Notes under the pieces: model-generated
What the model saw: the letters and a program-made list of their open reading frames with translations, nothing else
What the model was told of the DNA's origin: nothing
Databases searched by the model: none
Shown here: positions 1,672 to 27,670 of the stretch, one piece after another
Numbering within the stretch: the first letter of the stretch is position 1
Layout: each line of letters begins with the position of its first letter
Program-made: the position numbers and the translations under genes
Virus record (IMG/VR): IMGVR_UViG_3300026201_000010
Coordinates: 1-30,330 of that record
DNA: 30,330 bases
Strand: one strand, 5' to 3'
DNA from: a virus
Lineage: Duplodnaviria; Caudoviricetes

Positions 1672-3168
1672 ATGGCAGGACAATTATTAGGGCCAAACAC
1701 TTCTCCAGTAGGACCAGGGTTTGCGCTACAGCCAGCACCACAGCAAGTGCCGTTGGCTACGAATTACATTACTGATTTCAACTTTTTGAATCAGTACTTA
1801 CCAGACACTTATGAAAAAGAATTTGAGCGTTATGGTAATAGAACTATTTCTTCTTTCTTACGTTTAGTAGGAGCTGAGCTACCAAGTAACTCAGACCTAG
1901 TAAAGTGGGCAGAGCAAGGAAGATTACACACTAAATATATAAAGTGTGGAACAGCAGCAGTAGTTGATGCAGACAATGTAACATTTGACATTAACGATGC
2001 ATTAGTACCAGATAGAGCTGCAACAGGCTTAACAGCTGGAACTATCGCTATTCGTGTAGGTCAAACTGTTGTTGTTTCTAACAACGATGGTTCAGGAGAA
2101 TATAAAGGAATCGTAACTCTCGCAGGTGCTGCAGGAGGATTGAACGATAACCAAATTACTGTAGCTTTCTATAACGCAGCAGGTTATACAGGTGGTTCAG
2201 GAGCAGGTAATGCTGATGCAACTATCTTTATCTATGGTTCTGAATTCAAAAAAGGAACAGCAGGAATGCAAGGTTCTTTAGAAGCTGAAGATGAAATCTT
2301 CGATAACTCACCAATCATCATCAAAGATAAGTATGCAGTATCAGGTTCTGATATGGCTCAAATCGGGTGGATTGAAGTGACTACTGAAAACGGAGCTTCA
2401 GGATACCTATGGTATTTAAAGTCTGAGCACGAAACTCGTTTACGTTTTGATGACTACCTAGAAACAGCTATGATTGAAGCAGTGCCAGCAGAAGCAAATT
2501 CTGGAGCACTTAATGCTGGTGGAGATGTAGGAAACAAAGGTTCTGAGGGTGTATTCTACGCAGTAGAAAATAGAGGAAATGTATGGGCAGGTGGTAACCC
2601 AACTGCACTAGCAGATTTCGATACTATCATTCAAAGATTAGACAAGCAAGGTGCAATCGAAGAGAACGTACTTTTCTTGAACAGACAATTTGGATTTGAC
2701 ATTGATGACATGTTAGCTGAGCTAAATGGTTCTGCTCAAGGTGGAACTGGTGGAACTACAGCTAATGGTACTTCTTATGGTCTATTTGACAATGACGTGG
2801 AAATGGCATTGAATCTTGGATTCACTGGATTCCGTAGAGGGTATGACTTCTACAAGTCTGACTGGAAATACCTAAACGACCCAACTATGCGTGGTGGTTT
2901 AACTGGAACAGGTGCTGTAAATGGTTTATTAGTACCAGCTGGTTCAACTACTGTTTACGACCAAATCCTTGGAAAGAATGCTAAGCGTCCTTTCTTACAT
3001 GTACGATACAGAGCTTCAGAAACTGAAGACAGAAAGTACAAGACTTGGATTACAGGTTCAGCTGGTGGTGCAATGACTTCTGATTTAGATGCTATGGAAG
3101 TAAACTTCCTATCTGAAAGATGTGTATGTACTATGGGTGCAAACAACTTTGTGATTTTCCAATCATAA
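1672..3168 (+). CDS. Major capsid protein (HK97-fold, crAss-like/Flavobacteria phage type)
   Basis: 498 aa, G/A-rich, with highly expressed-type codon choice (ttc, aac, atc, cgt). Motifs QYLPDTYEKEFERYGNR, WAEQGRLH and GFRRGYDFYKSDWKYLND. Follows the scaffold gene and is followed by a strong terminator. Confidence 0.85.
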   Translation: MAGQLLGPNTSPVGPGFALQPAPQQVPLATNYITDFNFLNQYLPDTYEKEFERYGNRTISSFLRLVGAELPSNSDLVKWAEQGRLHTKYIKCGTAAVVDADNVTFDINDALVPDRAATGLTAGTIAIRVGQTVVVSNNDGSGEYKGIVTLAGAAGGLNDNQITVAFYNAAGYTGGSGAGNADATIFIYGSEFKKGTAGMQGSLEAEDEIFDNSPIIIKDKYAVSGSDMAQIGWIEVTTENGASGYLWYLKSEHETRLRFDDYLETAMIEAVPAEANSGALNAGGDVGNKGSEGVFYAVENRGNVWAGGNPTALADFDTIIQRLDKQGAIEENVLFLNRQFGFDIDDMLAELNGSAQGGTGGTTANGTSYGLFDNDVEMALNLGFTGFRRGYDFYKSDWKYLNDPTMRGGLTGTGAVNGLLVPAGSTTVYDQILGKNAKRPFLHVRYRASETEDRKYKTWITGSAGGAMTSDLDAMEVNFLSERCVCTMGANNFVIFQS

Positions 3169-6071: not shown

Positions 6072-9000
6072 ATGGCAGAGACTACTAGAAATTTTATTGC
6101 AGGGCGCATGAATAAAAGCGTTGATGAACGCTTACTCCCTAATGGCGAGTATATTGACGCACTTAATATTAGGCTGGGGTCTACTGAAGAATCTGAAGTT
6201 GGTTCGGTTGAAAATAGTAGAGGTAATCAGCAGTTAACAGCTTTAGAGCATGAAGGAGTGCCTTTAAGCTCTCAAGCTAAATGTATTGGAGCTTATGAGG
6301 ATGGGCAAAGAGAAACATTGTATTGGTTTGTACATGACCCAGCACACGCAGGAAAAGGTATAGTAGACTTAGTTGTATCATATAATGTGCAATTAAATTT
6401 ATTAACATACCATGTTGTGACAACTGGTTCAGGGCAAACAGTTTTAAATTTCAATGAAGATTATTTAATTACTGGAGTTAACAGAGTTGAGGATTTATTA
6501 TTCTGGACTGATAACTACAACCAACCTAGATTTATAAACATTACTAGAAATTATAACTCAACCTCACCTGATTTAGCAGAACAACTTTTAGTAATTAAAA
6601 AGCCACCAGTTGCAGCTCCATCATTTGAGCTAACAAATTTGTCTGGTGAAGAAAATTTTATAGAAGAAAGATTTATAACATTTGCTTATAGATATAGATA
6701 TGAAGATGGCGAGTATTCTGCTTTATCACAATTCACAGAACCAGCTTTTGTTCCTAAAGGATTTGATTATAAAATAGAATCAGGTCTGAATGAGGGAATG
6801 ACAAACGCATTCAATAATGTTAAAGTTACTTATAATAGTGGAGGTCCTTTAGTGAAAGCTATAGAAGTTGTTTTTGCTGAAACCACATCAAGTGTGATAA
6901 AATCTATAGAGATATTTGATAAACAAAATCTTGGATATGCAGACAATACAGATTACAGTTTAGATTTCAACAACAGTAAAATATATACTGTTTTAAACCC
7001 AACACAGTTAGTTAGGTTATTTGATAATGTTCCTTTAAAAGCTCAAGCTCAAACATTAATGGGAAACAGATTAATCTATGGTAATTATGTAGATGGTTAT
7101 GACTTATTAGATTTAAACACCAACCCTATAAGGCTTGAGTATTTTTGTAGGCTTTTATCCGAAGAAATTGGAGCTGAAAGTATTGGTGACCGAACTGATT
7201 CTTTTACGTATAATATTGATGGAAGTCAAAACATTGTAAATGCTGCGGTGTTTTTTGATTTTGATGATGTAGAGTTAAAAGCTGGCGCAGCTATTACTTT
7301 TGAAATACGATATACTCATTCTCAATTTTCTGGGCAAACCCCTTTTCCATCTCAACAGTCCACAAATTTAGAACTAGACTTTACATATATATTACCTATA
7401 GATTTTGGAAGTGCTTATGAATTATCACAAGACCCTTTATTTATACAGACAATAGGAACGGCAGCAAATATACTTCCAGTGTATGACCCTGTTCCTGGAA
7501 ATGAAACTTCATGTGACGGAACAACTATTACAGATGAATGGAATTGTTCTATTCCAAATACACTGGATACATTGATAAAATTTGAAAGCGGTATTACAGC
7601 AGCTGGACAACCTATAGAAATAATTTCTAGTCCAGGTAGTTCTGAGATTGGCCTTGTTGTACCAGCGATGAGATTTGTAGATGATTTAACTACACCTACA
7701 CAAAGTGTTTATGAATACTATACTGTTACTTTTGCAGAGGGGAGTTATTCAGGTATTGGAAATCCTAAAAGCTTACATAGTGATAGAGACTATGAAGTGG
7801 GTATTGTTTATATGGATGAGTTTAATCGTTCATCAACAGCTCTTGTTAGTCCTAACAATACTGTTCACGTCGGTTGCTCGGCTGCATCTCTTCAAAATTC
7901 TATTGAAGTAACTATTCCCCCATCACAACTAGCTCCAGCTTGGGCTGACCGATATAAGCTTTGTATAAAGCCAGATTTTGAGGATTACAATACAGTTTAT
8001 TCAAACATATTTTTTGATGAGGTAGGAACTGCGGCAACATTCTTTTTGCTAGAGGGTGAAAACGCTAGAAAGGTTGAAGAGGGTGATAGGCTTAGGGTAA
8101 AGGCTGATACTAATGGGCCAACTACAAGATGTCAGTACGCTACTGTTTTGCAGAAAGAAGCTCAGACACAAGACTTTATGAGCCCTCCACCTAAAGACTC
8201 TAATGGTACAGATATTCCTGTTCCAGCAGGGACTTATATGAAAATAATACCTAATGACTTTGAGGTGGTTCAAGGCGATTTACCGACAGTTTTATATGGC
8301 AAGAGAAGTGATTGTGGTAGAAGAAAAAACGAGCACCCAAGAGTAGCTTATCCAGTAAGCATTGAAGACCCAAATAACCCAGGGCAATTTATTGATTATT
8401 CATTACCTGCAGGTTCAAGAATAAATATATATGTAGACTTTAGAAGAAAAGGAACAGGGAATCGTGCGTGTGATGGAAGACGTTATATATTAGATTTAAA
8501 GCTAACAGCTTCACAGGATTATGATAACTTTAAAGAATGGTGGGATGGAGATAACATCGCTTCTTTATTAGATAGCGGAGCGGTATCTGGAATTACAGGA
8601 GACCCTGATTGTCCACCTCCTTACTATGCTAATTATTATAACCCTGCTATACAGACAGGTCTTGGAACAAATAATGCTTTAGCTGCTATGCCGCAAAACC
8701 GATGTGAATATCAGTGGCAGTTTTTACGAGCAACAAGTAACAATCAACTTTCTCTTGGATTAGTTGGAACTAACTCATGTTCTGGCGCTAAAAATTCAAG
8801 TAAAAGAAGAGCATGTATTAGTGCTAAGATAGAAGTTTTTAGGGCTGAGAATACATTGGTTTTTGAAACTGAACCACAAGATGCTACTCCAGATTTATGG
8901 TATGAATCTGCAGATGTATTTAGTATCGACAAAGCAACTGGAAGACACGATGGTAATATACAAAACCAAACTAGTACTCAATCTGCTGTTGTATTAACAG

Positions 9001-10517
9001 ACTTTTTCAATTGTTATTCTTTTGGTAATGGTGTAGAGAGTTATAGAATTAGAGATTCAATTGTAGGTAAAGAGTTTAGTTTAGGAGAAAGAACTACATC
9101 TACTTCTGAATTAGAGTTTAAGCAAGCACATCGCTTTGCTGATTTAACTTATAGTGGTGTTTATAACAATGAAAGCAATGTAAACAAGCTAAATGAATTT
9201 AACTTAGGTTTACTAAACTTTAAGCCTTGTGAAGATATATATGGTCCGATTGAAAAACTTCATGGAAGAGAAACCGATATATTAGTTTTACAAGAAGATA
9301 AAATTTCTTATGTACTGGCTGGAAAGAACTTGTTAACAGACTCCACTGGTGGAGGTCAAGTTGCTTCTGTACCTGAGGTTTTAGGAACTCAGATAGCCAG
9401 AATAGAAGAGTATGGTATTTCAAGAAACCCTGAAAGCTTTTGTTCTTGGGGTTACAATAAATATTTTACTGACGCTAAGCGTGGTGCTGTAATTATGCTT
9501 ACAGGTTCTGCAGGACAAAATGAACAGCTTACAGTAATTTCTGAAGCTGGTATGAGGTCTTGGTTTAGAGATAGATTTATTAATGGATTAAACACTCAAA
9601 AGCTAGGAGGGTATGACCCATATATGAATGAATATGTTTTAAGTGTTAATGAGGAAAATTTACCTTCAGAAGAATCTTGCATTGCTTGTGGTATTGAAAG
9701 AACATTTACCTTTCCTGAAGATAAAACATTTAATTATTGTATAGATTTAGGAGAATTAGTAGGAAATACAGATATAGAAATATTCGCAAGTGACTCACAA
9801 GGTAGCACTATAAAGGTAGTTTATAATGGTGTAGATGTGTTGCCAACAACCACTATTAATAATGGAAGTTCTTCTTTTGTTTTTGATAAAAATATTGTTA
9901 GTGAATCTGAAGCTCAAGTTACTCTTACTGGTAAAAGCGGTGCTACTATAAAAGTAGCTATAAAGTGTCCTGTTGCTGAGATTATAACTGTGTATCAAGT
10001 TTGTATAACAAATGCTACTCACGTAGGCCAAACCATACACAATGAGTATAGATGGATAGACGGAACATATTTATCGCCACTACATTCTGAGCAGATAACA
10101 TTTGTAGATGGCACTGATTTTATTATTATCAGTCAGTTTGATTCAGTAACCGCTCCGCAAGGAGCAGGAGTTATTCCTGCTGACAATGCTTCTGTTCAAG
10201 TAATTTGTCATAAAAGACCTGTTGATAATTTTGTTTTTCAGCCTACTCAAAATGAGTTATATGCCTTAAGAACTAACACCACATACGCAGCTACACCAGC
10301 TGGTATACTTTCTTTAATTTCTGCTGCAGGTACAGCTTTACCTTTAGATGTTTCTCTTGCACCAGACCAATATATTGGAAACTATACAATGACTACAACA
10401 GGCTCAAACTTATATTTAGTATATGATTATAGACAACCAACGGAAGATGTATTATGTTACGGAACAACAGACTTAAACGATGTGTGCTGTGACTGTACCG
10501 AACCACCAACACCATAA
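6072..10517 (+). CDS. Tail stabilization / nozzle (muzzle) protein, P22 gp10-like, N-terminal major part
   Basis: 1481 aa. GRMNKSVDERLLPNGEYIDALNIR start, LLFWTDNYNQPRFIN, FAYRYRYEDGEYSALS, YGISRNPESF, YFTDAKRGAV and GGYDPYMNEY are characteristic beta-propeller motifs of this family. Confidence 0.8.
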   Translation: MAETTRNFIAGRMNKSVDERLLPNGEYIDALNIRLGSTEESEVGSVENSRGNQQLTALEHEGVPLSSQAKCIGAYEDGQRETLYWFVHDPAHAGKGIVDLVVSYNVQLNLLTYHVVTTGSGQTVLNFNEDYLITGVNRVEDLLFWTDNYNQPRFINITRNYNSTSPDLAEQLLVIKKPPVAAPSFELTNLSGEENFIEERFITFAYRYRYEDGEYSALSQFTEPAFVPKGFDYKIESGLNEGMTNAFNNVKVTYNSGGPLVKAIEVVFAETTSSVIKSIEIFDKQNLGYADNTDYSLDFNNSKIYTVLNPTQLVRLFDNVPLKAQAQTLMGNRLIYGNYVDGYDLLDLNTNPIRLEYFCRLLSEEIGAESIGDRTDSFTYNIDGSQNIVNAAVFFDFDDVELKAGAAITFEIRYTHSQFSGQTPFPSQQSTNLELDFTYILPIDFGSAYELSQDPLFIQTIGTAANILPVYDPVPGNETSCDGTTITDEWNCSIPNTLDTLIKFESGITAAGQPIEIISSPGSSEIGLVVPAMRFVDDLTTPTQSVYEYYTVTFAEGSYSGIGNPKSLHSDRDYEVGIVYMDEFNRSSTALVSPNNTVHVGCSAASLQNSIEVTIPPSQLAPAWADRYKLCIKPDFEDYNTVYSNIFFDEVGTAATFFLLEGENARKVEEGDRLRVKADTNGPTTRCQYATVLQKEAQTQDFMSPPPKDSNGTDIPVPAGTYMKIIPNDFEVVQGDLPTVLYGKRSDCGRRKNEHPRVAYPVSIEDPNNPGQFIDYSLPAGSRINIYVDFRRKGTGNRACDGRRYILDLKLTASQDYDNFKEWWDGDNIASLLDSGAVSGITGDPDCPPPYYANYYNPAIQTGLGTNNALAAMPQNRCEYQWQFLRATSNNQLSLGLVGTNSCSGAKNSSKRRACISAKIEVFRAENTLVFETEPQDATPDLWYESADVFSIDKATGRHDGNIQNQTSTQSAVVLTDFFNCYSFGNGVESYRIRDSIVGKEFSLGERTTSTSELEFKQAHRFADLTYSGVYNNESNVNKLNEFNLGLLNFKPCEDIYGPIEKLHGRETDILVLQEDKISYVLAGKNLLTDSTGGGQVASVPEVLGTQIARIEEYGISRNPESFCSWGYNKYFTDAKRGAVIMLTGSAGQNEQLTVISEAGMRSWFRDRFINGLNTQKLGGYDPYMNEYVLSVNEENLPSEESCIACGIERTFTFPEDKTFNYCIDLGELVGNTDIEIFASDSQGSTIKVVYNGVDVLPTTTINNGSSSFVFDKNIVSESEAQVTLTGKSGATIKVAIKCPVAEIITVYQVCITNATHVGQTIHNEYRWIDGTYLSPLHSEQITFVDGTDFIIISQFDSVTAPQGAGVIPADNASVQVICHKRPVDNFVFQPTQNELYALRTNTTYAATPAGILSLISAAGTALPLDVSLAPDQYIGNYTMTTTGSNLYLVYDYRQPTEDVLCYGTTDLNDVCCDCTEPPTP

Positions 10518-12342: not shown

Positions 12343-12870
12343 ATGGGTATATTAAGTATATTTACAAAAAGGAAAAATAAACCAGAGAATATACTAGAAT
12401 ATGTCCATCAAAACAGAGGTCTTCTTTGGGAGAATATTAATACATTCAAAGAGAACGTCTTATTACACAGTGATTCGGTAAAGCACCACACTCCTGAAAT
12501 GGATAAGTTGATGCCAGTTACTCATCATTTGAAAGACGGACTATATACCAGAGAGATTTTTATGCCGAAAGGCACATTGGTTGTAAGTTTTATTCATAAA
12601 CAAACCCACCCATCTTTTTTTTTAAAAGGTGAGATGTCAGTTTTATTAGATACTGGCGAGGTCAAAAGAATAAAAGCACCAATGAAAGTGATGACTGAGA
12701 TAGGTACGCAACGAGTTGCTTACATACATGAAGATACAACTTGGGTGTGCGTATACAGAACAAACGCTAAAACAATTGAAGATGCTGAGGCAGAGGTTTA
12801 TACGGAAGATTATAAAGAACTACCTGAGTATGTTATATTAAATAAAAAATTATTATGTCAGGAGCAATAG
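12343..12870 (+). CDS. Cupin-like (double-stranded beta-helix) protein
   Basis: HHLKDGLYTREIFMPKGTLVVSFIHKQTHPSFFLKGEMSV...IKAP...GTQRVAYIHEDTTWVCVY matches cupin motif 1/2 spacing. Confidence 0.65.
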   Translation: MGILSIFTKRKNKPENILEYVHQNRGLLWENINTFKENVLLHSDSVKHHTPEMDKLMPVTHHLKDGLYTREIFMPKGTLVVSFIHKQTHPSFFLKGEMSVLLDTGEVKRIKAPMKVMTEIGTQRVAYIHEDTTWVCVYRTNAKTIEDAEAEVYTEDYKELPEYVILNKKLLCQEQ

Positions 12871-15663: not shown

Positions 15664-18600
15664 ATGGACGAATTAAAAAAACTATATGATACTCTAGTAA
15701 GAGAGGGCTATTACACTAATTCTTACGATGAGTTTGTGCAGAAGTATAACGGAAGCGATGCGTACAAAGACCAAGTGTTTGGAGTGGTATCTAGAGATGG
15801 TTTATATACCAAATCAAAAGAAGAGTTTTTGTTGAAGTACAAAAGTCCTGAGCTTAAAACAAAATCGTTTGTTGAAGTAAAAAAAAAAGACGCTTCGGAC
15901 TCAGATTCGGAAGTTGGTTTATTGGAGCGATTCAAGACTAAGTACAATATTCAAGAAGATGATGTTGATTTACGAGAGCAACCTCCAGTACAAGCGGTAG
16001 ACCAAACAAGAGTTGCACAACCAAAGTTTAGAGACCCTGTTCAAGTAGCTCAAGAAAGAGAAGTTAAAGAAGCTTTTGATGCTCAACGTAAACTGGACAT
16101 GGAAGCTTTTAAAACTCAAGAAAAGCTAGACCAAGAAGCTCAGTTAGAGCAGCAAAAAATAAACCAAACATTACTACAACAAAGTCAACAGTTTAGAATT
16201 GATTTGCAAATGGTTACTTCTGACCTTATTGCTCAACACGAAGATTATGTTGTCCCTGCTTTAAATAAAAAGTTTCAGAAGTATGGTTTCTCTTTTGAAA
16301 AAACTGGCATTGGTGATGCGTTGGTTGTTACTAATTTTGATGGTTCAGCCACAGAAACAATTGACCTCGACCCTTTTACTACAGATACAGAGATATTAGA
16401 ATCTCAAAAACTAAAAAACTTTTTATCACAACATGCTCTTGAAGAGTTTGAAACTAATGAAGCATCAGACTTTGAGGGAAAATCCTTAAGAGCTCAGCAG
16501 CTACGAAGAGTAGGATTAATAAATCCTGACGGAACTACCTCTACTGTTTTGATGACATCTTATGAAGAAGACGGTAAGCATTATGCTATTCCAACTTTAT
16601 TCCCAAAAAATCCTGAGTTCTACGGAACTAATCCTAATGACTGGATGAAGTTAGATTTTGAGGAAGCAAAAAAAGTAGCCGAAGAAAGAGGTGAGGTTTT
16701 TCAGTTTGATACAGAAGAAGAAGCGCAAAGATTTGCAGAGGGTGAGTGGAAAGACACGCATTCTACAGACGCTATAGGCAAACAATTATACTCAGAGACT
16801 GGCCTAAACTTTAAAACTGAGCAAGCAAAATATGACAAGTATCTACAGGTAAGAGATGAAATAGATTTTATAGAATCTCAGGTTGCAGATTTTGGAGATG
16901 ATTTTATTGAAGAGCTAACACCAGAGCAAAAGAAACTTTATAGTGGGTTGTATGTTAATGGTATTTTAAGAGATGATACCGATGAGGTTTTAGCAGAGCT
17001 TAAAAAAATAGAAGATGATTTATATTCTGAGGTTAACACCACAGAAAAGATAGACTTGAGAGAAAAATATGACCTGGCATTACAGAAAAAATATTCAGCA
17101 TTAGCTAAAGATGCATCAATTGCAAACTATCAAGCCAAAGCTTTTGAGGAAGCGTTGGAAGTTGAAGCACTAGAAACTTTCGGTGTTGGGCTAAAAGACT
17201 TAACAGACGTAAAGCCAGAAACAGAACGAGAAGCTGCATTACTAGATAGCTTCAAAGTTCAGGTCGCATCGCTTAATGCAGAGAAACAACATGCAGCAAA
17301 CATATATGAGTCAGCTAAAACTTTCTATAGTGCTAAGTATGACAAAAGTATTATGGGTGAGTTCGAGACAGGTATGTCTGCAGTAATGAATGAGCTACAG
17401 AAAGGTCTTAATGATGGTAATGCCGCTGAAATAATACTTCAGTTATCTACAGGAATGGCTTTTGATTTTCAATCATTAGACCTTGATAATCCAGAAGATA
17501 GAAAAAAAGCTGCTGAAATAATAGTGGCTTTAAAAACAAAAAACAGAGGTAAAAAAGATTCAAGAGCACTATCCAGATGGAACAGAGCTAAAGGATTTAG
17601 AGAAAGCTTAGACGCTTTTTTAAGAAACCCTAGAGAACTAGCATTATCTTTAGCTGCAAATTCTATAGGAATGATGTTGCCTTATGGAGTTGAAATAGTT
17701 GCAGGTTCTACAGCGACAGGTGCAGGAACAGGAGCAGTAGTAGGGTCGGTTGTTCCAGGAGCTGGTACACTTGGTGGAGCAATAGCAGGGGGTACAAAAG
17801 GATTAAAAGCTGGATTTGCCTTAACAAGTTTAGCTATGGAATATACTAATGAATATTTTGCAGCCATGGAAGCTGAGGGCTATGATGTTCTTGATGCTAA
17901 GGACGTTGAACTAGCTATGCAAGATGATGATGTGTGGGCGTTAGCAAAAGAGCGTGGTTTAAAGCGTGGTATTCCAATTGCTTTAGTTGATTACCTCACT
18001 ATGAATTTAGCTGGTAGGGTTTTTCAAGTAGGTAAGACAGCGACAAGAACTAAAAAGATTGCATCTCAATTAGCTGAACGTGCTATCTTTGACCCTGTTG
18101 GTGAGATGGCTGGTGAAGCAGCAGCTCAAGTTGCAGTGGGTGATAACTTAGATTTTAAAGAGATTGCTGCTGAGGGTATCGGTGGTTTTGGTAACAACGC
18201 CAGTATGATGGCTGTCAATAAGCTTATAGATGCACGTAATATGTCTAACATAGAGCTTGCTTCTAAACTTACTGATATAAACTTTATTGTTAACGAGAAA
18301 GAATCAGACACCAGAATATCAGCGTGGACAAATAATATGGTTACACTTGGTAAGATTAACGAAGACCAAGGACAGCGCATACAAAAAAACTTAGGCTTAT
18401 CTAAAGATGCAGATAACATGCTGGATTTTGGAAGAAGTAAAAACAAACCTAAGAATAAAAGAGTAAAGGCTAGACTAATGGAATTGTTAGCGGCCAAAGA
18501 AGAATATACTGCTGACAATAATCGTAAAGAAGTGTTTAGCCAGAAGATAAAAGATATAAACGCAGAGATTGCATATCTTATAGAAAACAAATCATTAGCT

Positions 18601-21600
18601 CCAGACAACAAGAGAGCAAAGATAGAAGCTATATTCTCACCAGGCGTAGAGGTTGGTGATGTAAGAGCTGGGCTATCTCAGTATGTGATTGACGGAAAGA
18701 GTTATAGCAAGCAAGACTTTTTAAAGAAGCTTGGTAAAATGAGTGTTCGTGAGCTGACCAAGTTCAATGGTAAGGTTGTTAATGATGTAGAAGTTGCTAA
18801 CCAATTAAATGATAAAATAGAAGATGCTTCTTTTGAAGAAACAACTATTGAAGCCACTGATGTTGCGGAAATATATGGGCCTGATGTTATAACTCATAAG
18901 ACAATATTCAATTCAAGAAAGAAAAAAGGAGGTATTGAAGCTATAAAAAGCTGGGTAAATAGCGGTCAAATTACTGGTACAAATGAAAATATAAATGAGT
19001 TTGTCGAAGGCACTGTTAATAAAAGAGGTGAAGGTAAATTAAAAATAGGAAGTGATAATAGACAAACACCTAACTTTCAACAAGGTGGAATATTTGGTAA
19101 TAGAGTTTCTGATGTAGAAGGTGGTTTTGTTTTAGTTTCAAAACCAGGGACTATACAGTCTACTGACTTGCAGCCTAATGAAAGTTTTATAAACAGAGAA
19201 ACTGTTGAAGACAGCAGAGGTATAGTACTGCCTAAACCAGGGACTCCTGCAAGAGACATAAACAACTATGATATCTATAAAGTTGTAGATGGAAAAATGG
19301 TAAAACAAAACCCTAACAAATTTAAAACAAAACCATTGAGAAAGGGTTCTGAAGTCACAGTTACAGGTACAGAAGTTTTAGAAGCTCTAAAAGCTGATGG
19401 AATTGAATCTCCTACTGAACAACAGAAAATAAAAAAATCAGATGAACTTATAAAAATAAAACAAGATGCCGTTCAAAAGTCAGAAACAGAGAGCGTGGAT
19501 GCACGCCAACAAGCCGCAATTGGCACAGGAGTGGGAACAGAAGTATCACTCGAAGAAACCCCAGGGGTTGAGACCACCGAAACGCAGGAAGTAGAAGTAC
19601 CACAAGTTGTTGGTACTAATCCTTTATCCTCTATTGAAGTATCTGAAGATTATAATGATATAGGTGCTCAAAGAAGAGAGAAGATGAAAGCTGTTACACG
19701 AGCCATGGAAGATGGTGAGATAACCGAACAAGAAGCTCTTGATTTAAGAAAAGAAAGTTTTGACAATGTAAAAGAAGCTCAAAGACTTTATGAAATTAGA
19801 AAACAAAAACGTAATATTGCAAAGACAAATGAAAAAACAAGTGAAGAAACAACCACAGAAGTCCCAGCAGGAAACAGACTCTTTAGTCAGCCCTTACAGG
19901 CAGCGACAGAAATTGCGGATAGAGTTAAAGAAAGAACTGGAATTGATACGCCAAAGGGTAAGAGAATAACAAAGTTAGACGAAGAACGTTCAAAAAGAAT
20001 ATCAGACGCATACGAAAAACAAGAAGCAAACCCTAATGACCCTGAAGTACAGGCAGCTTACAAGGCTTTAGTAGATGAAACTATAGCTCAGTATGAAGAT
20101 ATATTAGCTGATGGGTATGTAATAGAGCTGAGCGACACAGAGTATAAGAGCTCTTCTGATATGATTTCAGACCTTAGAGACAATAAGAACATGAGAGTGT
20201 TCTCAACTGAAGAGGGGTTTGGTGATGCTGGTATTACAGACGCAGATAGAGCGACTAATCCTATGTTAGCTCCCACTAAATTTAAAGACAAAAATGGCAA
20301 ACCCCTTATAGTTAATGATGTGTTTAGGTTTGTTCATGACTTTTTTGGACACTCTAAAGAGGGTAATAGCTTTGGTCCTATAGGTGAAGAAAACGCATGG
20401 GACGTTCATTCTAGAATGTATTCTCCTTTAGCTAGAAGAGCCATGACAACTGAGACTAGAGGTCAGAACTCTTATGTTAATTTTTCTGGAGTTAATGAAA
20501 AAGCTTTTAAGTTAAGAGATGAGGCCAGAGCACTAAGAAAACAAGGTAAGTTCGAGGAGGCTGAAGCTAAAGTAAAAGAGGCTTATGACATGATGAGTTT
20601 TGCTGAGCAAAAAATAATGCTTCTTCCTGAAGAGTTTAGTTTGTTGCCTGAAGAAACTCCTGAGGGTATAGCTCTAGCTGAAGAGGTATCTGATTTAAAA
20701 ACTACCTTAGATGATACTAAGGTAGACTTCAGAAAGAAAGAAGACGATTCATTTACTCCTATAAAAGGTGAAGTAGATGCAGTCACTAAGGCAATCAACG
20801 AAACACAGTCAGGAAATGTATCTACCAATCTTGTAGTAAAACCTGAGGGTACTATTGATGTTAATGAACTCAATAGTAGAACAAACAGAAAGCTTCCATC
20901 ACTAAAAACATTAGAGGTAATTAATGGTATACCTGCTATATTTAATATATCAGACCAGCTTACTACAGGTAACACTGTAAATGTTTTAACTGGTAATACC
21001 ATAGATAATTTAAGAGGTGGTCTAGGATTTACTGGTACAATTGGAAATGAAAATGCTGCGTGGGCTAGTACTACAAGAGAAGAAGCACAGAGACTATTAG
21101 ATAAAGCTAAGAAAGTATACAACGATAACAAAGAATTGTTTGATAAGTTCTGGAAAGACAATCCAGAGTTTAATGGACACGTTCCTATGAACATCGTTAA
21201 GATGGGTGAGGGTTCTATATCTTCAAATGAAGCTATTTTCAGAGTACTTAAAGACAACCTGTCTAAAATCCCTGCTGAAAACAAAGTAAAAGCTTTAGGA
21301 GTTTTAAGACAAGACCTACAAGATATTGCAAATAGAAGAGCAGAGTCAATTAAAAAAGGTCAGGGTACTGATACTACTTTAAAAAAGTATCAAGAAGAAA
21401 TAACAAATATAGAGAATGTTATAGAGGCTATGAAAGATATGAGTTCAATAGAACAAATATTAAACGCAGAGTTTCTGTCTGAATTAAATATACCCACAAG
21501 AGAATTACTTAGTAAAAGAATAACTACTGGTTCAGTTCGTAGAGCTGGTGCGCCAAAGAAAAAGGTAACTATGCCAGCGAAAAGCGGTAAACCTGTAGTT

Positions 21601-24600
21601 CTTGCTTTATTAGAGGGTATGGAGCCTAGTACAGAGACTGCTAGCTTAACTCATATACAGGAAATTACAGACCTTATTACTGAACCTCAACTAGCTAATG
21701 TGCCACAGAGAAGTATAATAGCATTACAGGCGGTTGATGTAACAGTTGATGATGTTATAGAAACAAATCACCCTAATTATCCTTTTGGTCCTAAAGGAAA
21801 AACCATAGGGATATTAGAGCAGCCTGTTTCATTGGTAGAAACTTATCCAGAAGCTTATAGATTAGCTATGGCTGGATTAACATCGGCTGAAACGAAACAA
21901 GATAGAGTAACCAAAACAAAAGCAGAAAAAAGTAAAGGGCAATTAGTTGAGGGTGAACTTGCACCAGCTAGTGTTGGAACTATATTGACGCAAAAATTAG
22001 GAGTACAATATGGCTTACCTGGACTCGAATTTGAGGGAGCACTAGCGCAGACTAATATGGATGATGCTGCTAAGCTAAATGCTTTTATGAATATTGCATT
22101 TCCGTCTGTCACTATATCTACTGACACCTCAACATTTAATAATGTTATGGAGTCTGAGGGTGTTAAAAAATATCTTAAAGGTGATGAGGTTATATATGGT
22201 GTTACTGTTGATGGTGATATATATGTAAATCCAGATGTACATAATTCTCAATCAGCTTTATTTAACACATCTATTCATGAGATGGGTCACGTGTGGACTG
22301 ACTACTTACAGACTACAAAGAAAGGAAAAGCTATATATGCACAAGGTGTAAAACTTGTAGAGCAAACAGAAGAATATAAGAAGCAACTTAAGAATTTTAA
22401 CGGAGACAAAGTTAAAGCTGCAAACGAAACTATGGCTATCCTTATTGGAAACAAGGGACAAACTATAGCTGATGGAGCAGTAAAGAGTAAGTTTACTCAG
22501 TGGCTTTTAGGTATGTGGAACTACATCAAGTCTCAATTTAAAATGTCAAAAGATTTGACGGCTGAAGAAATTCAGGACATGAATCTAGATACATTCCTAG
22601 GAACTGCACTTGCTGATATCTTTGCTGGTAAAGAAATAAACCTTACTAAAGCTCAGAAGAAAAAACTTAAGAATCCTGATGTTGCATTCAGTAAGACAGA
22701 TTCAATGGGTGCTATCATAGATAAGGGAAGACAGAACGGATTCTCAGACGCATCTATTAAAGAGGTTTTAAAAGACAGAGGTTTTAAAGTTTCTGATATA
22801 AACGCTGCTATGGAAGTTAAGGTTGATGCGTTTACACCACTGCCAGAAGCTTTTGGTAGAGTAGAGGGTGGTGTTAGCCAGGGCATGCAGTTGTTTAACG
22901 AGGTGAGACAGAAGCTTTCTAAGTTTGCGACACCAGATAAAACATTATCTGATGTCAGACAAAAGGCAATGGATTTAATTAAAGAGAATCCAATCTACAA
23001 AGCTCAGCCAGAACAAACTCAGATGGAGATTCTAGTGGACTTTGACAAGACATTGAACACACGTTCTAATGTTGCTGTGCAAAAAGAAATAGCTGCGATT
23101 AAAAACAATTTAAGGCAGCGTAAAATAAATAGCCAGAATCTAAAGGCCGCACAGATACAATTAAGAAACTATATAAGAAAGGCTCTACCAAAGTCTAAGA
23201 TGTATACTCAAGCTCAAATAAACAAGCTTATATCACGTGTTACAAAGTCTACAGTGGATACATTCCAGGCAGATACTGAGTATGTGATGAAGATTGTAGA
23301 CCAACAGAAAGCCAAGATGAAGAAAGCTGTCATCAAAGACATGCTTAAGCTGGTCAAAGCAAAAGCTATGACTGCATTCACTAAGTCTGGTAAGCGTAGA
23401 GCTAAAGGTTTAAGTCGAGAGGGTACAGCATACTTCAAAGCAGTTAAGCAGATACTTACAGCTGATGTAGATACCCTTAAAAAAATACAGGAGGACCTGC
23501 AGAATGAGAGCTCAGAGATAAGCAATCTTATAGAGAAACAACAAGATGGACAGAAGCTAACTCAGAAAGAGCAAGCTAAAGTTAATCAGGCTCTAGCTTT
23601 TGATACCTTTGGTGATGTATCTAACATGAGCTTAGAAGAAGTTCAAGGCTTAATGCAACAGCTAAAAGATGTAAGGGCCGAATCAATCGCAACGTTTAAA
23701 TCAAGAAGACTAGCAAGAGTAGAAGCGAACAAGAAAATGAAAGAGGAGGCTGATGCTCAGATTAAGGATACCAATCCTATGCTGTTTGATGCTGATGGAA
23801 ATGTTTTAAATACAAATGAGCGTAACGCCATAAAGAATGAGATACTTTCTCATTTTAGAAACTTTGAGATAGGCAAAGCTTTTAGTGAACTGGGTGAGAG
23901 AATGAAGTTTAGTACGGCCAGAGAGTTTATTCAGAACATGAAGCAAATGTTCCAACACTTAGGTACATTAAGTAATGTATTGGATAGAGTGACTCAGGGT
24001 AAAAACTTTTTTACCAAGAATGTTTATGATGCTTTGAATAGAATGGATGACCTCAACAATGCAGGTGTATTTGAAACTCAAGGGAAGCTTGATGCTATAG
24101 CAAACACAATCCCTGGTATAACCAAGGGAGTAAAACAAATATATCGCAAACTCAATAGTGGTGTTCATGTTTTAAAATTAAAGCGTAGTGATACTGGTCG
24201 AGAGTACACTGATAGGTTTAATGCAGATGAACTCATGCGTATATATGCGCTTAGCTTGAATGATGTTCAAAGACAGAAGCTTGAAGCTCAGGGTATAACT
24301 CCTGAGGTTATAGAGAATATTAAAAATATAATAGGTCCAGAAGCTGTAGAGTTTACTGACAAAACTGTAAACTTCTTAAGCAATGAATACTATGAGAGTG
24401 TTAACGATGTATACTCATACGTTAATGATGTTAACTTAGGATATGTAAATAATTACTTCCCAACATCAACGATACAGAAAGAGACCACCAAGAAGATGAT
24501 TACTGATGGTGATTTTAGTGGTGTGTTCAATGCAGAATCTGCTCCTGCTTTTAAAGAAAGGGTAGACATGAGGTCTGATGTAGACCTACACGCAGGAACG

Positions 24601-26163
24601 TTCACAACTGTTCTTAAGAATCATGTGGATACAATGGAGAAATATAAAGCGTATGCTGTAGGCACACAGAGACTCAACGCTTTATTTAAGATTGACTCTG
24701 TTAATGTATTACTAGAAGAGATGGGAGTAACAGGGCCTATAAAAAAGGCTGTTAACTTCGCTATCAATCCAGACTCTGGTAAAGATGCGAGTCTAAGTAT
24801 AAAACTTATAGCTAGACTACAGACTCAGTTTACAGGATTTGCTTTAGCTTTTAAAGCTATACAGATAGTTAAGCAGGCAACATCATTTGTGAATGCATAC
24901 TCTGATTATAGTTATTTCCCTGCCAGCTCTAGAGTTCCTAGGGTTATACAGGCAGCGGTTGACCTACCTATGTTTATGATTGATGGAGCAAAAGTAGCTT
25001 TGTCTTTAGGTAAAGATTTAGTTGGTAAGAAAGGAGCTATAAGAGAGGCTATGGAGATATCACCTACATTTAGAAAAAGGGTTGAGCAAGGTCTTGAGGG
25101 TGATGTATATGGATTAGAATCTGGGTCTCAAACATTTAAGAAGACGGCACTTACTGGAGGTAAACTTAAAAGAGTACAAGCTGCGTTTAAAACTGCAGCA
25201 GCTTCACCAACAATAATTGGTGATGTCTTAGGGGTTATGGGTTACATGATTAACTACAAGCGTAACATTGCAAACGGAATGAGTAAAGCCGACGCTGTAA
25301 AAGCTTTTAATGATTATAATGCTACTCAGCAATCACGAAGAGGAACAGATAAAATTCCACTTCAAATGAATAGTAATATATTTAATCGTGCATTTACCAT
25401 GTTCGGTAGTACATTATTTCTGCAGATGAATAAAGTTATGCAGAGTACTACTAACATTACAAGAGACATGGCTAATAAGAAAAGACCACGTTCAAAAGAT
25501 ACTAGAGATTTAGCTTTGAACTTAGCTGTTGCCAACGTATTGTTTGTAGGTGTGTCTAACATAGCTAAATTTATTAAGGGTGATGATGAAGATAAGGAAG
25601 CAGCTCTTAAGAAAATGGCTGAAGCAATGATGGGATTAAACCTTATATATCAATTACCATTCCTAGGCTCTACAGTAGAGGGACTTGATGTAGCTGGTAG
25701 AGTTATCTCTGGTATAAAAGGAGAAGAGTACAAGCAAAAAGGCAGAATATTTAATGATGATATTGTAAATCCTGTTGCTAGTGTATTACAAAAGTACAGA
25801 AAGCTAACCAAGAAGGGTGAAAGTGAAATCGGTGCTGTGACTAGAGCTTTAGCAGAGATAACTATTGGTGCACAGCTTGACCCTTTCATCGGATTATATA
25901 ACTATTTTGGTGGCGAAGAAGAGGACTTAGACCCTGCTGTTTATGACATGCTTGGTATATCTCCATCGTATCGTCCTAAAAATAAAGGTAGTGTAAGTAA
26001 GGGAATGAGCAAGAAAGATATGAAAAAATTCGCTCCTGGATTATATGAAGAATTGTACGGACCAGGCGGTAGCTTAGCTCCTGTAGAACAATTAAAGAAA
26101 GACGAGAGAAAAAGAAAGCGTGACCTCCAGAAAGAGATAGACGCTGCTATGGGTCTTGATTAA
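15664..26163 (+). CDS. Giant polyvalent ejection (cargo) protein with zincin-like domains
   Basis: 3499-aa continuous ORF with a glycine-zipper hydrophobic segment (about 17635-17840), HDFFGH...GEE (20335-20391), HEMGH (22276-22290) and a long helical C-terminal region. Last gene of the virion operon. Confidence 0.8.
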   Translation: MDELKKLYDTLVREGYYTNSYDEFVQKYNGSDAYKDQVFGVVSRDGLYTKSKEEFLLKYKSPELKTKSFVEVKKKDASDSDSEVGLLERFKTKYNIQEDDVDLREQPPVQAVDQTRVAQPKFRDPVQVAQEREVKEAFDAQRKLDMEAFKTQEKLDQEAQLEQQKINQTLLQQSQQFRIDLQMVTSDLIAQHEDYVVPALNKKFQKYGFSFEKTGIGDALVVTNFDGSATETIDLDPFTTDTEILESQKLKNFLSQHALEEFETNEASDFEGKSLRAQQLRRVGLINPDGTTSTVLMTSYEEDGKHYAIPTLFPKNPEFYGTNPNDWMKLDFEEAKKVAEERGEVFQFDTEEEAQRFAEGEWKDTHSTDAIGKQLYSETGLNFKTEQAKYDKYLQVRDEIDFIESQVADFGDDFIEELTPEQKKLYSGLYVNGILRDDTDEVLAELKKIEDDLYSEVNTTEKIDLREKYDLALQKKYSALAKDASIANYQAKAFEEALEVEALETFGVGLKDLTDVKPETEREAALLDSFKVQVASLNAEKQHAANIYESAKTFYSAKYDKSIMGEFETGMSAVMNELQKGLNDGNAAEIILQLSTGMAFDFQSLDLDNPEDRKKAAEIIVALKTKNRGKKDSRALSRWNRAKGFRESLDAFLRNPRELALSLAANSIGMMLPYGVEIVAGSTATGAGTGAVVGSVVPGAGTLGGAIAGGTKGLKAGFALTSLAMEYTNEYFAAMEAEGYDVLDAKDVELAMQDDDVWALAKERGLKRGIPIALVDYLTMNLAGRVFQVGKTATRTKKIASQLAERAIFDPVGEMAGEAAAQVAVGDNLDFKEIAAEGIGGFGNNASMMAVNKLIDARNMSNIELASKLTDINFIVNEKESDTRISAWTNNMVTLGKINEDQGQRIQKNLGLSKDADNMLDFGRSKNKPKNKRVKARLMELLAAKEEYTADNNRKEVFSQKIKDINAEIAYLIENKSLAPDNKRAKIEAIFSPGVEVGDVRAGLSQYVIDGKSYSKQDFLKKLGKMSVRELTKFNGKVVNDVEVANQLNDKIEDASFEETTIEATDVAEIYGPDVITHKTIFNSRKKKGGIEAIKSWVNSGQITGTNENINEFVEGTVNKRGEGKLKIGSDNRQTPNFQQGGIFGNRVSDVEGGFVLVSKPGTIQSTDLQPNESFINRETVEDSRGIVLPKPGTPARDINNYDIYKVVDGKMVKQNPNKFKTKPLRKGSEVTVTGTEVLEALKADGIESPTEQQKIKKSDELIKIKQDAVQKSETESVDARQQAAIGTGVGTEVSLEETPGVETTETQEVEVPQVVGTNPLSSIEVSEDYNDIGAQRREKMKAVTRAMEDGEITEQEALDLRKESFDNVKEAQRLYEIRKQKRNIAKTNEKTSEETTTEVPAGNRLFSQPLQAATEIADRVKERTGIDTPKGKRITKLDEERSKRISDAYEKQEANPNDPEVQAAYKALVDETIAQYEDILADGYVIELSDTEYKSSSDMISDLRDNKNMRVFSTEEGFGDAGITDADRATNPMLAPTKFKDKNGKPLIVNDVFRFVHDFFGHSKEGNSFGPIGEENAWDVHSRMYSPLARRAMTTETRGQNSYVNFSGVNEKAFKLRDEARALRKQGKFEEAEAKVKEAYDMMSFAEQKIMLLPEEFSLLPEETPEGIALAEEVSDLKTTLDDTKVDFRKKEDDSFTPIKGEVDAVTKAINETQSGNVSTNLVVKPEGTIDVNELNSRTNRKLPSLKTLEVINGIPAIFNISDQLTTGNTVNVLTGNTIDNLRGGLGFTGTIGNENAAWASTTREEAQRLLDKAKKVYNDNKELFDKFWKDNPEFNGHVPMNIVKMGEGSISSNEAIFRVLKDNLSKIPAENKVKALGVLRQDLQDIANRRAESIKKGQGTDTTLKKYQEEITNIENVIEAMKDMSSIEQILNAEFLSELNIPTRELLSKRITTGSVRRAGAPKKKVTMPAKSGKPVVLALLEGMEPSTETASLTHIQEITDLITEPQLANVPQRSIIALQAVDVTVDDVIETNHPNYPFGPKGKTIGILEQPVSLVETYPEAYRLAMAGLTSAETKQDRVTKTKAEKSKGQLVEGELAPASVGTILTQKLGVQYGLPGLEFEGALAQTNMDDAAKLNAFMNIAFPSVTISTDTSTFNNVMESEGVKKYLKGDEVIYGVTVDGDIYVNPDVHNSQSALFNTSIHEMGHVWTDYLQTTKKGKAIYAQGVKLVEQTEEYKKQLKNFNGDKVKAANETMAILIGNKGQTIADGAVKSKFTQWLLGMWNYIKSQFKMSKDLTAEEIQDMNLDTFLGTALADIFAGKEINLTKAQKKKLKNPDVAFSKTDSMGAIIDKGRQNGFSDASIKEVLKDRGFKVSDINAAMEVKVDAFTPLPEAFGRVEGGVSQGMQLFNEVRQKLSKFATPDKTLSDVRQKAMDLIKENPIYKAQPEQTQMEILVDFDKTLNTRSNVAVQKEIAAIKNNLRQRKINSQNLKAAQIQLRNYIRKALPKSKMYTQAQINKLISRVTKSTVDTFQADTEYVMKIVDQQKAKMKKAVIKDMLKLVKAKAMTAFTKSGKRRAKGLSREGTAYFKAVKQILTADVDTLKKIQEDLQNESSEISNLIEKQQDGQKLTQKEQAKVNQALAFDTFGDVSNMSLEEVQGLMQQLKDVRAESIATFKSRRLARVEANKKMKEEADAQIKDTNPMLFDADGNVLNTNERNAIKNEILSHFRNFEIGKAFSELGERMKFSTAREFIQNMKQMFQHLGTLSNVLDRVTQGKNFFTKNVYDALNRMDDLNNAGVFETQGKLDAIANTIPGITKGVKQIYRKLNSGVHVLKLKRSDTGREYTDRFNADELMRIYALSLNDVQRQKLEAQGITPEVIENIKNIIGPEAVEFTDKTVNFLSNEYYESVNDVYSYVNDVNLGYVNNYFPTSTIQKETTKKMITDGDFSGVFNAESAPAFKERVDMRSDVDLHAGTFTTVLKNHVDTMEKYKAYAVGTQRLNALFKIDSVNVLLEEMGVTGPIKKAVNFAINPDSGKDASLSIKLIARLQTQFTGFALAFKAIQIVKQATSFVNAYSDYSYFPASSRVPRVIQAAVDLPMFMIDGAKVALSLGKDLVGKKGAIREAMEISPTFRKRVEQGLEGDVYGLESGSQTFKKTALTGGKLKRVQAAFKTAAASPTIIGDVLGVMGYMINYKRNIANGMSKADAVKAFNDYNATQQSRRGTDKIPLQMNSNIFNRAFTMFGSTLFLQMNKVMQSTTNITRDMANKKRPRSKDTRDLALNLAVANVLFVGVSNIAKFIKGDDEDKEAALKKMAEAMMGLNLIYQLPFLGSTVEGLDVAGRVISGIKGEEYKQKGRIFNDDIVNPVASVLQKYRKLTKKGESEIGAVTRALAEITIGAQLDPFIGLYNYFGGEEEDLDPAVYDMLGISPSYRPKNKGSVSKGMSKKDMKKFAPGLYEELYGPGGSLAPVEQLKKDERKRKRDLQKEIDAAMGLD
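15879..15888 (+). other. A10 slippery run (candidate -1 frameshift / transcriptional slippage site)
   Basis: GTA AAA AAA AAA GAC at codons 72-76. The -1 frame continues RRFGLRFGSWFIGAIQD to TAA at 15939-15941. Confidence 0.45.
19466..19594 (+). CDS. Nested +1-frame small basic protein (42 aa, MPFKSQKQRAWMHANKPQLAQEWEQKYHSKKPQGLRPPKRRK)
   Basis: ATG preceded by TAAAAATAAAACAAG, like genuine starts in this window. It resembles the MPFKSxxQRxW/F...P..A..W small phage protein pattern, and main-frame GC3 jumps exactly over this interval. Confidence 0.7.
   Translation: MPFKSQKQRAWMHANKPQLAQEWEQKYHSKKPQGLRPPKRRK
19829..19969 (+). CDS. Nested +1-frame small protein (46 aa, MKKQVKKQPQKSQQETDSLVSPYRQRQKLRIELKKELELIRQRVRE)
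   Basis: ATG with A at -3, 9 nt after a near-consensus -7 element (TAATATTG, 19812-19819). It has an amphipathic C-terminal helix, and rare main-frame codons (gcg, acg, ccc, ctc, gtc) occur over the interval. Confidence 0.45.
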   Translation: MKKQVKKQPQKSQQETDSLVSPYRQRQKLRIELKKELELIRQRVRE

Positions 26164-27256: not shown

Positions 27257-27434
27257 CCATTGAGTCTATCATTGCTTTTAGCTGTAGGATTAATGTCTTA
27301 GTAATTTCTTTACAGTGGGCGTAATCATGGTCTATTAAAGACTCATATATCTCATCACAAGAGTCGTGAAGCTCGTTAGTTATTGCATTAACATGTTTTA
27401 TTCTTTCGTTCTCAAGTGACGTTATTTGTTCCAT
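27243..27434 (-). CDS. Hypothetical protein (63 aa, helical)
   Basis: Tiles without gaps with its neighbours (TAATG overlap at 27434). Confidence 0.6.
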   Translation of the reverse strand: MEQITSLENERIKHVNAITNELHDSCDEIYESLIDHDYAHCKEITKTLILQLKAMIDSMDDDL

Positions 27435-27670
27435 TAATCCCTGTCCATTACGACCAAAAAGTCGTTGCCAATTTTGTGGTCTATCTGTTTTATTTGTCTA
27501 TATATTTTCCTTGAGTTTTTTTTTGCTTCTAATCTTTCTGATTTTGTTGAATCAATCCCAAGGTTAGTATACAAATCACAATCAATACGTAATAATTCAT
27601 CTATTTTTTTCTTATCACTCCATGATTTAAACTCCGTTATCTTTTCTATGTCGTTAATTGTATATTCCAT
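27434..27670 (-). CDS. Hypothetical protein (78 aa)
   Basis: Tiles with its neighbours and has normal composition. Confidence 0.65.
   Translation of the reverse strand: MEYTINDIEKITEFKSWSDKKKIDELLRIDCDLYTNLGIDSTKSERLEAKKNSRKIYRQIKQIDHKIGNDFLVVMDRD

Follow-up and report, generated by a model that had tools for sequence, protein, structure and literature searches.

Nested or overprinted genes are known from bacteriophages, lambda Rz1 inside Rz and phiX174 E inside D among them. Recoding is documented as well, for instance the frameshifts of lambda G/GT and of T7/T3 gp10A/B and the slippage in Thermus dnaX and Shigella spa13 treated in PMC5009743, and very large phage polypeptides have been described as polyvalent proteins (Iyer et al. 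2017, PMC5512222) and as the cargo proteins of crassviruses (PMC10172136). Here we set beside these systems a giant gene of a tailed virus (Caudoviricetes; IMG/VR record IMGVR_UViG_3300026201_000010), whose 30,330-base record, estimated to be 50% complete, forms the window analysed. It is the last gene of a head-tail operon on the + strand of the window. An earlier note, made from the sequence alone, had proposed that it hides a second coding layer, composed of a -1-frame tail behind a run of ten adenines and of two nested +1-frame open reading frames (ORFs). The coordinates given there for the giant ORF, the A10 run, the tail and both +1 ORFs are all correct, and comparison with relatives reveals selection on the named frames, strong on the first +1 ORF (ORF1) and on the tail and clade-limited on the second (ORF2). 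The features concerned are listed below (nt, nucleotides; aa, amino acids; pI, isoelectric point; pLDDT, predicted local distance difference test).

15664-26163, + strand: giant mosaic gene of 3,499 codons (aa), which closes the head-tail operon and whose product is likely virion cargo
15664-15843, + strand: N-terminal helical module of two repeats, common to the giant protein and the predicted slippage product
15879-15888, + strand: A10 slippage-prone run, the only A-run of at least 9 on the + strand of the window
15879-15941, + strand: -1-frame aromatic tail, 20 codons to a TAA at 15939-15941
18844-19458, + strand: variable inserted module (aa 1061-1265), the 'ART-like' domain of the earlier note
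19446-19465, + strand: A-rich initiation context of ORF1 (A at -13, -12 and -11), score 6.1 against a background mean of -3.8
19466-19594, + strand: ORF1, nested +1-frame gene for a 42-aa basic microprotein of the MPFKS family, pI 11.2
19829-19969, + strand: ORF2, clade-limited +1 ORF of 46 aa, overlapping the beginning of the HDFFGH domain
19861-20628, + strand: conserved HDFFGH domain (aa 1400-1655; motif at aa 1558; phrog_3170; pLDDT 93)

Within the window alone, the alternative frames are ordinary. The giant gene contains two ATG-started +1 ORFs of at least 40 aa, where 1,000 synonymous-codon shuffles yield 2.39 +/- 1.24; showing no excess, ORF-length statistics were rejected as evidence for hidden genes, and because the count is ordinary the case for these frames rests on relatives. 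This equality with the null speaks for a reading of the alternative frames as chance openings or shadows of the main-frame protein, and most of the 66 alternative-frame clusters that we compared do behave as shadows (54 with a ratio <0.8), unlike ORF1, which ranks first among them. Over all the frames together we hold that reading to be very improbable. For ORF1 and the tail its chances are slighter still, the comparisons given below having largely refuted it already, while for ORF2, which overlaps a conserved main-frame motif (so that its likeness is partly of the shadow type) and whose clade counts are inflated by kinship, it keeps a minor but real share of the probability. The earlier note had named stops in close homologs and a lack of synonymous constraint as the outcome that would speak against its proposal, and this outcome did not appear across the three signals.

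ORF1 is almost certainly a real hidden coding frame. In a set of relatives collected through a main-frame domain (80 of 132 confirmed loci, fetched without using the ORF1 peptide and then scanned with its profile), ORF1 lies within the giant ORF in 49 of the 80 loci, always in the +1 frame and in one of them split (L076; L numbers designate loci), and of the 62 in which the 5' end of the giant is available, 44 contain it. A second set, fetched with the peptide itself (best 80 of 134 loci, some contigs being common to both sets), has ORF1 in +1 inside an ORF of at least 300 aa in 38 of 80. All five candidates from a protein collection proved homologous to the peptide, and weaker homologs are separate annotated coding sequences (CDS) in Streptomyces phage FlowerPower (gene 48) and phage 023Pt_psg01. 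Among cultured phages, an ORF1 variant matches 68 Flavobacterium records, 38 elemo rows among the matches listed falling under a 'structural protein' CDS; the frame was confirmed at position 52379 of elemoF (NC_055853.1), the only record in which it was checked.

Over 109 close pairs drawn from 55 unique nested copies, substitutions are shared among the three ORF1 codon positions as 0.30/0.09/0.61. The share of 0.09 at position 2 makes the main-frame wobble the least variable site, and amino acid identity over ORF1 is 0.91 in the peptide frame versus 0.78 in the main frame; together with the existence of free ORF1 homologs, this weighs strongly against chance. The start is equally well kept, being ATG in 59 of 59 unique contexts (the copy in L159 is an overlap, not a nested copy). 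A occurs at both -12 and -13 in 82% of 45 ORF1 starts as against 17% of 6,910 +1-frame ATGs, although linkers rich in Lys and Glu are A-rich anyway, which inflates start scores. Adenines at these two positions are positive initiation determinants in Flavobacterium johnsoniae (PMC6847099). Six loci (L101-L106) have GGAGG before ORF1 in place of the A-rich context. In five of these (L101, L102, L104-L106) ORF1 is nested in giants without a blastp match to the giant of the window, possibly an independent nesting in phages of a host that uses Shine-Dalgarno sequences. The motif TAnnTTTG, which we take to be the promoter motif, precedes ORF1 in 2 of 68 cases versus 32 of 198 controls, so that no internal promoter is enriched there and internal initiation on a long mRNA appears likely. 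ORF1 thus combines conservation in divergent relatives, purifying selection in its own frame and a conserved start with a host-type signal, the marks of a nested gene.

Within the giant, ORF1 marks the junction after the N-terminal block. A truncated duplicate of the ORF1 start stands ~400 nt before the intact copy in elemoF (L195:21984; NC_055853.1 position 51983), and in L076 ORF1 is split by ~700 nt (4337 and 5045); these two cases suggest that modules insert at the ORF1 junction. A tree of the peptide, built with repeated nesting in mind, gives 7 changes, and with 44 columns a single origin remains compatible.

The second hidden frame, the tail behind the A-run, is very probably real too. 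One extra A at the A10 run is predicted from the sequence to give a 92-aa product ending in the -1 tail. Within the first 110 codons of 83 unique giants with a 5' end, a run of A9 or longer was found in 62, though in two of them (L062 and L068) it is another run, with no tail behind it. When relatives were instead fetched through the N-terminal module (56 loci, 48 unique), a run of A9-A12 turned up in 44 of the 48 unique ones, the remaining four lacking a run in 420 nt, while elsewhere in the giant genes only 2 runs of A9 or longer occur in 475,729 nt. The 15 codons that follow the run hold 4 stops in the -1 frame versus 93 expected, all 4 of them in L062 and L068, and over 14 close pairs the substitutions fall on the -1-frame codon positions as 0.18/0.09/0.73, that is, mostly on the tail's own third position, which is hard to reconcile with a chance opening. 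Cultured elemoF, phi40:1 and Calle_1 have A10 plus the aromatic -1 tail. The module upstream of the run was modelled with AlphaFold2 in a natural entry (P0008) as helices over residues 2-58 (pLDDT ~72-83); its best BFVD matches are unnamed viral proteins, mostly large, and a fold search against the PDB gave no match, which says nothing on novelty.

Runs of 9 As slip efficiently in bacteria (PMC5009743), and two marks of a slippage site, a homopolymer of at least 9 at a conserved place and a selected alternative-frame product, are present here. The runs are 9-12 long and occur in all three phases; no stem-loop was found downstream (fold z mean -0.59, 10% below -2); and the heptamer A_AAA_AAG is in frame at only 3 of 60 sites, so that the heptamer with a 3' stem-loop expected of a dnaX-type -1 frameshift is lacking. 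On these three grounds we favour slippage by the polymerase. The short product might instead arise from -1 ribosomal frameshifting or from ribosomes sliding on poly-A, a route which we rate as possible though the less probable of the two: three in-frame AAA codons are found at 50 of 60 sites, sliding on A-runs has been reported (PMC5009743) and the useful frame is always -1, but the rarity of the shiftier A_AAA_AAG, the lack of downstream structure and the retention of at least 9 As in any phase do not fit it well.

The length of the run also varies among deposited sequences. Four Pachyviridae records (phi46:3, phi13:2, phi19:3 and phi18:3) and Panino were deposited with A9 (L196, L201-L204), as was one contig represented by L155 and L218; with A9 the giant falls into the -1 and the tail into the -2 frame, and in the first five records the genes are annotated as split or late-starting. 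Of 18 short database proteins, 4 carry an in-frame tail, while 2 terminate in +1. These entries would suit a phase-variation switch at the DNA level, with A9, A10 and A11 genomes coexisting in a population. We find this unlikely, given that of the 44 run-bearing viral contigs 43 have the giant in frame, one has it in -1 with A9, and none has the tail in frame. The tail-in-frame and +1-ending proteins may be homopolymer errors, which explain such entries as well. Panino is a Nanopore-only assembly (PMC11590407), and metagenomic matches to the Pachyviridae pattern have A10 in 3 of 3 cases; for these reasons we treat A9 as unproven, representing either homopolymer error or an obligatory slippage for the giant. 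Gundel, an Illumina-sequenced Pachyviridae isolate, was not among the matches.

ORF2 is a probable hidden coding frame, with less assurance than the other two. Its frame is open from 19772, an additional ATG lies at 19790, and the part of it that is conserved lies over ~35 residues at the beginning of the HDFFGH domain. Hence, of the two +1 ORFs that the earlier note placed between an ART-like and an HDxxGH domain, ORF2 does not belong there; the 'ART-like' label for aa 1061-1265 itself found no support in sequence searches, which gave no Pfam, NCBIfam or PDB match. A first reading of ORF2 as a pure shadow, based on a crude mapping in which it was open in 25 of 73, was revised on later open-frame and wobble results. 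Of 54 representative loci, 31 have an uninterrupted +1 frame across aa 1400-1430, where 13.4 would be expected. In one clade of 15 loci (clade B), main-frame wobble differences are 0.26/0.24 over ORF2 while the remainder of the domain has 0.45-0.58, two Leu codons are CTC in 12 of 15 as against 13 of 245 elsewhere, and codon 1412 varies between K, T, P, E and S while the +1 frame keeps Ser-Arg. The ratio of +1 to main-frame identity is 0.99 in clade B, 0.77 in clade A and 0.46 in the others, clades A and B having been picked after the tree was seen and kinship inflating the pair counts. RNA structure does not account for the constraint, the fold z being 0.09 and 0.23, and was rejected as an explanation.

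A further nested +1 family with the motif GKKxLEELRAxGP and A-rich starts was noticed in seven loci (L020, at aa 1106; L035, L047, L049, L067, L070 and L098). It mostly runs on into ORF2 as one longer ORF, stands alone in L098 and is absent from the window.

The earlier note had also suggested that the nested peptides could act as cognate inhibitors or chaperones, each for the adjacent effector domain with which it is inherited. As a general rule this is unlikely, because ORF1 is found without either neighbour. The upstream insert (aa 1061-1265), present in L087, L097, L119 and L135, is absent from L086, a 92% identical relative, and from L001-L003, all of which keep ORF1; the HDFFGH domain is missing from the available sequence of a number of ORF1-bearing loci (e.g. 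L089, L099, L109, L135, L143 and L101-L106); the distance from ORF1 to that domain ranges from ~200 to 3,300 nt; and ORF1 is free in unrelated phages. For ORF2 alone the cognate idea is a tentative one. It is nested over the start of the HDFFGH domain in 29 of 29 loci, and search patterns derived from the nested copies found no stand-alone ORF2 in these 29. The predicted complex of ORF2 with the domain has an interface score (ipSAE) of 0.53, the best of 3 controls reaching 0.02, with runs agreeing in at least 72% of contacts and a partner pLDDT of at least 59. The pass mark is reached by 116 of 157 solved complexes and by 2 of 215 mismatched pairs, but the range at or below 0.60 holds only 18 of the passing solved complexes together with both passing mismatches, which places the score in a weak range. 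The domain, moreover, is kept without ORF2 in 23 of 54 loci.

The surroundings of other family members point to a different role for ORF1. Members of the MPFKS family occur free, overlapping, fused or nested, including in unrelated phages. At ten loci (L107, L124, L130, L131, L147, L159, L161, L162, L164 and 023Pt_psg01), free, overlapping or fused homologs have terminase, portal, scaffold-position, capsid or head-morphogenesis genes as neighbours, and in L107 the motif is fused to a head-morphogenesis domain protein; the other neighbourhoods scanned are mostly unannotated. Since free homologs sit among terminase, portal, scaffold and capsid genes, ORF1 likely has a head role, acting inside the head on DNA or on a head protein. 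In this respect the earlier suggestion of a small basic virion peptide is a likely one for ORF1, whose pI is 11.2. The same basicity would suit a host-directed or lysis-timing peptide that is no head component, as would FlowerPower gene 48, which precedes a holin, and DUF3008, the nearest Pfam-bearing cluster to ORF1 (15% of members, score 0.84), which is a lead only. Set against the ten loci by head and packaging genes, we judge such a peptide rather improbable. No curated model or known function for the MPFKS family was found in the libraries searched.

Several other arrangements of the family were observed. In L103, L108, L114, L118 and others, an MPFKS gene and a ~120-aa ORF overlap in +1 over the final ~28 codons of the latter; in L161-L164 such a gene is nested in +1 within an ORF after the portal gene; and in L107:586-3984, L116:6001 and P0026 the motif forms the N-terminus of longer proteins. 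The idea that an open host frame is intrinsic to free MPFKS genes (20 of 30) was withdrawn, because many such copies overlap the 3' end of the ~120-aa ORF.

From the observed sequence, conservation, frame-specific selection and start context we infer translation of these frames, the slippage step and all functions. In the explanation that we favour, with moderate confidence, the giant gene carries three extra frames, selected in many relatives (ORF2 in some lineages) and likely expressed from the late mRNA, of which the first two likely serve head assembly or cargo loading. At the A10 run, RNA polymerase would likely insert a single extra A into some of the transcripts, and the slipped transcripts would yield no giant but the 92-aa protein, made of the N-terminal helical module and the aromatic, glycine-rich tail; slippage would thereby fix the ratio of the short partner to the giant cargo, as in lambda G/GT. 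Ribosomes would likely initiate internally at the A-rich start of ORF1, producing the basic MPFKS-family peptide, whose likely target is DNA or a head protein in the head interior; of the two overlapping frames it is that of ORF1 which is constrained, the giant's acidic linker tolerating it. ORF2 probably arose afterwards by overprinting where the HDFFGH domain begins, and it may cap or chaperone that domain.

A number of observations pull the other way. The first two frames are not tied to each other: of the 83 giants, 51 have the tail and ORF1, 15 ORF1 only, 9 the tail only and 8 neither. ORF1 is missing from 18 of the 62 giants with a 5' end in the main-frame-domain set and was undetected in the fetched parts of phi40:1, phi46:3 and Panino, and its homolog in FlowerPower adjoins a holin, not head genes. 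Three public RNA-labelled runs gave shares of 0.06-0.07 from short contigs, none spanning the A-run. In the predicted fold of the short product the helical module has a pLDDT of ~80, the tail one of ~50 and no strands; the likely beta-hairpin of the tail, aromatic and glycine-rich, is for that reason read from the sequence alone. As for ORF2, a segment-length rule has it open in 31 and broken or closed in 23 of 54 loci, the effect is smaller in clade A, to which the window belongs (10 loci; +1/main identity 0.77 versus 0.53 downstream), and its ATG in the window has a middling context (-1.1), under the 90th percentile of the background.

A wider view is possible, albeit speculative: the giant virion-cargo genes of flavobacterial podophages would be nested operons in which, jointly, a 5' slippage switch sets the amount of a short partner, an anchor or pore, relative to the giant, a mobile head-peptide gene has been captured repeatedly in linker DNA, newly overprinted peptides of the ORF2 type cap the effector domain they overlap so that domain and guard move as a cassette, and, in the lineages with A9 records, even the full-length protein needs slippage.

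Three further features of the window bear on its host and on the giant protein:

1672-3168, + strand: structural gene in the major-capsid position, used as tblastn query for finding cultured relatives
6072-10517, + strand: crAss-like muzzle protein gene (PF25731, E 5.5e-16)
22276-22290, + strand: HEMGH (HExxH) motif at aa 2205 of the giant, by motif a possible zincin-like peptidase

The gene at 1672-3168 matches 85 phage records by tblastn (68 from Flavobacterium, 15 from Cellulophaga, 1 from Maribacter and 1 uncultured), and since its cultured matches are phages of these genera the host is likely a member of the Bacteroidota. In the position of the giant gene, phi40:1 gp101 and phi18:3 gp123 are both annotated as structural from tandem mass spectrometry. 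Searching with aa 1-1060 of the giant by tblastn did not reach these two isolates, so that kinship to their genes is argued from synteny and the shared hidden features (A-run and tail). The giant protein is likely packaged in the virion, and we infer that it is ejected at infection.

Among relatives, modules of the giant are gained, lost and reordered, making it a large polypeptide of several exchangeable domains. In L066, L075 and L079, the order of the HDFFGH domain and the module corresponding to window aa ~1673-2078 is the reverse of that in the window. The motif of the former is HDxFGH, versus HExxH of zincins; its BFVD matches include proteins labelled polyvalent-associated, while no clear match was found in the PDB (best Z 3.3, zincins Z 2.3), which says nothing on novelty. 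An atlas search with aa 1061-1660 reached unnamed clusters at 0.83, and the region around HEMGH (aa 2179-2325) is common to other giants. Neither the giant of the window nor sixteen related giants have a named polyvalent Pfam domain (LPD, MPTase or ART), and for the window NCBIfam was negative as well.

Some minor observations complete the picture. The giant ORF of L023 is broken ~1.7 kb from its start, by assembly error or as a variant, whereas of the near-identical L025 and L026, L025 is whole. Two antisense ORFs lie under the giant gene on the minus strand (20583-21284, 233 aa, and 18126-18611, 161 aa) and have no Pfam or PHROG match. Possible further slippage sites are a T9 at 12615-12623 within the ORF 12343-12870 (tail fibre adhesin-like) and an A9 at 27516-27524, on the minus strand, within the ORF 27434-27670.

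Overlapping genes are known in phages, as is recoding. A second layer that spans a whole family, inside the giant virion genes of marine and freshwater Bacteroidota podophages, is something we did not find described. The arrangement does not appear in the open-access full text searched, the original elemo and Cellulophaga proteomics papers being places that could still mention it, and the hidden layer is not annotated in the records opened. The conserved look of the acidic 'low-complexity linkers' in giant proteins finds an explanation in such a layer. It also gives cultured phages small proteins that lack annotation, and it hints that the run is where several deposited genes are split. Systems with cultured hosts are at hand in elemoF (run, tail and ORF1) and in phi40:1 and Calle_1 (run and tail). 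Should ORF2 bind its domain, it would clearly exemplify a guard peptide that originated as an overprint of the very target it guards.

With polyvalent proteins (PMC5512222) the giant shares its very large mosaic build, exchangeable modules, an HExxH motif and one domain common to proteins labelled polyvalent-associated, but it has no named LPD, MPTase or ART Pfam match; the words 'frameshift' and 'overlapping' do not occur in the main text of that article. With the crassviruses whose cargo proteins are described in PMC10172136, a main text in which 'frameshift' does not occur, it has in common the podophage setting, a muzzle gene and late genes that are large and encode proteins carried in the virion, but no RNA-polymerase or gp45/gp46 family match. 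Small basic proteins of phrog_1375 and the DUF3008 kind bear a weak likeness to the N-terminal motif of ORF1 (E 0.005-0.03; atlas 0.84), below family thresholds.

The A-run, a predicted slippage site, resembles those of Thermus dnaX and Shigella spa13 (PMC5009743) in having at least 9 identical bases in a coding region and a conserved alternative-frame product, but it lies in a phage virion gene and is kept across several flavobacterial podophage groups. As in the lambda G/GT and T7/T3 gp10A/B frameshifts (PMC5009743), a structural gene with a conserved site would give two products that share an N-terminus, the signal likely setting the product ratio. The shift at codon ~75, however, would truncate 3,499 aa to 92 aa instead of extending a protein, and its signal is a run of 9-12 As in any phase, not a heptamer.

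Like Rz1 and phiX174 E, ORF1 is small, has a start codon to itself and lies entirely within another gene, in the +1 frame. Unlike them it is not a lysis gene by any test made here, its host is a 3,500-aa mosaic virion gene that carries several nested ORFs, and its family is also found free, overlapping, fused and in other host genes.

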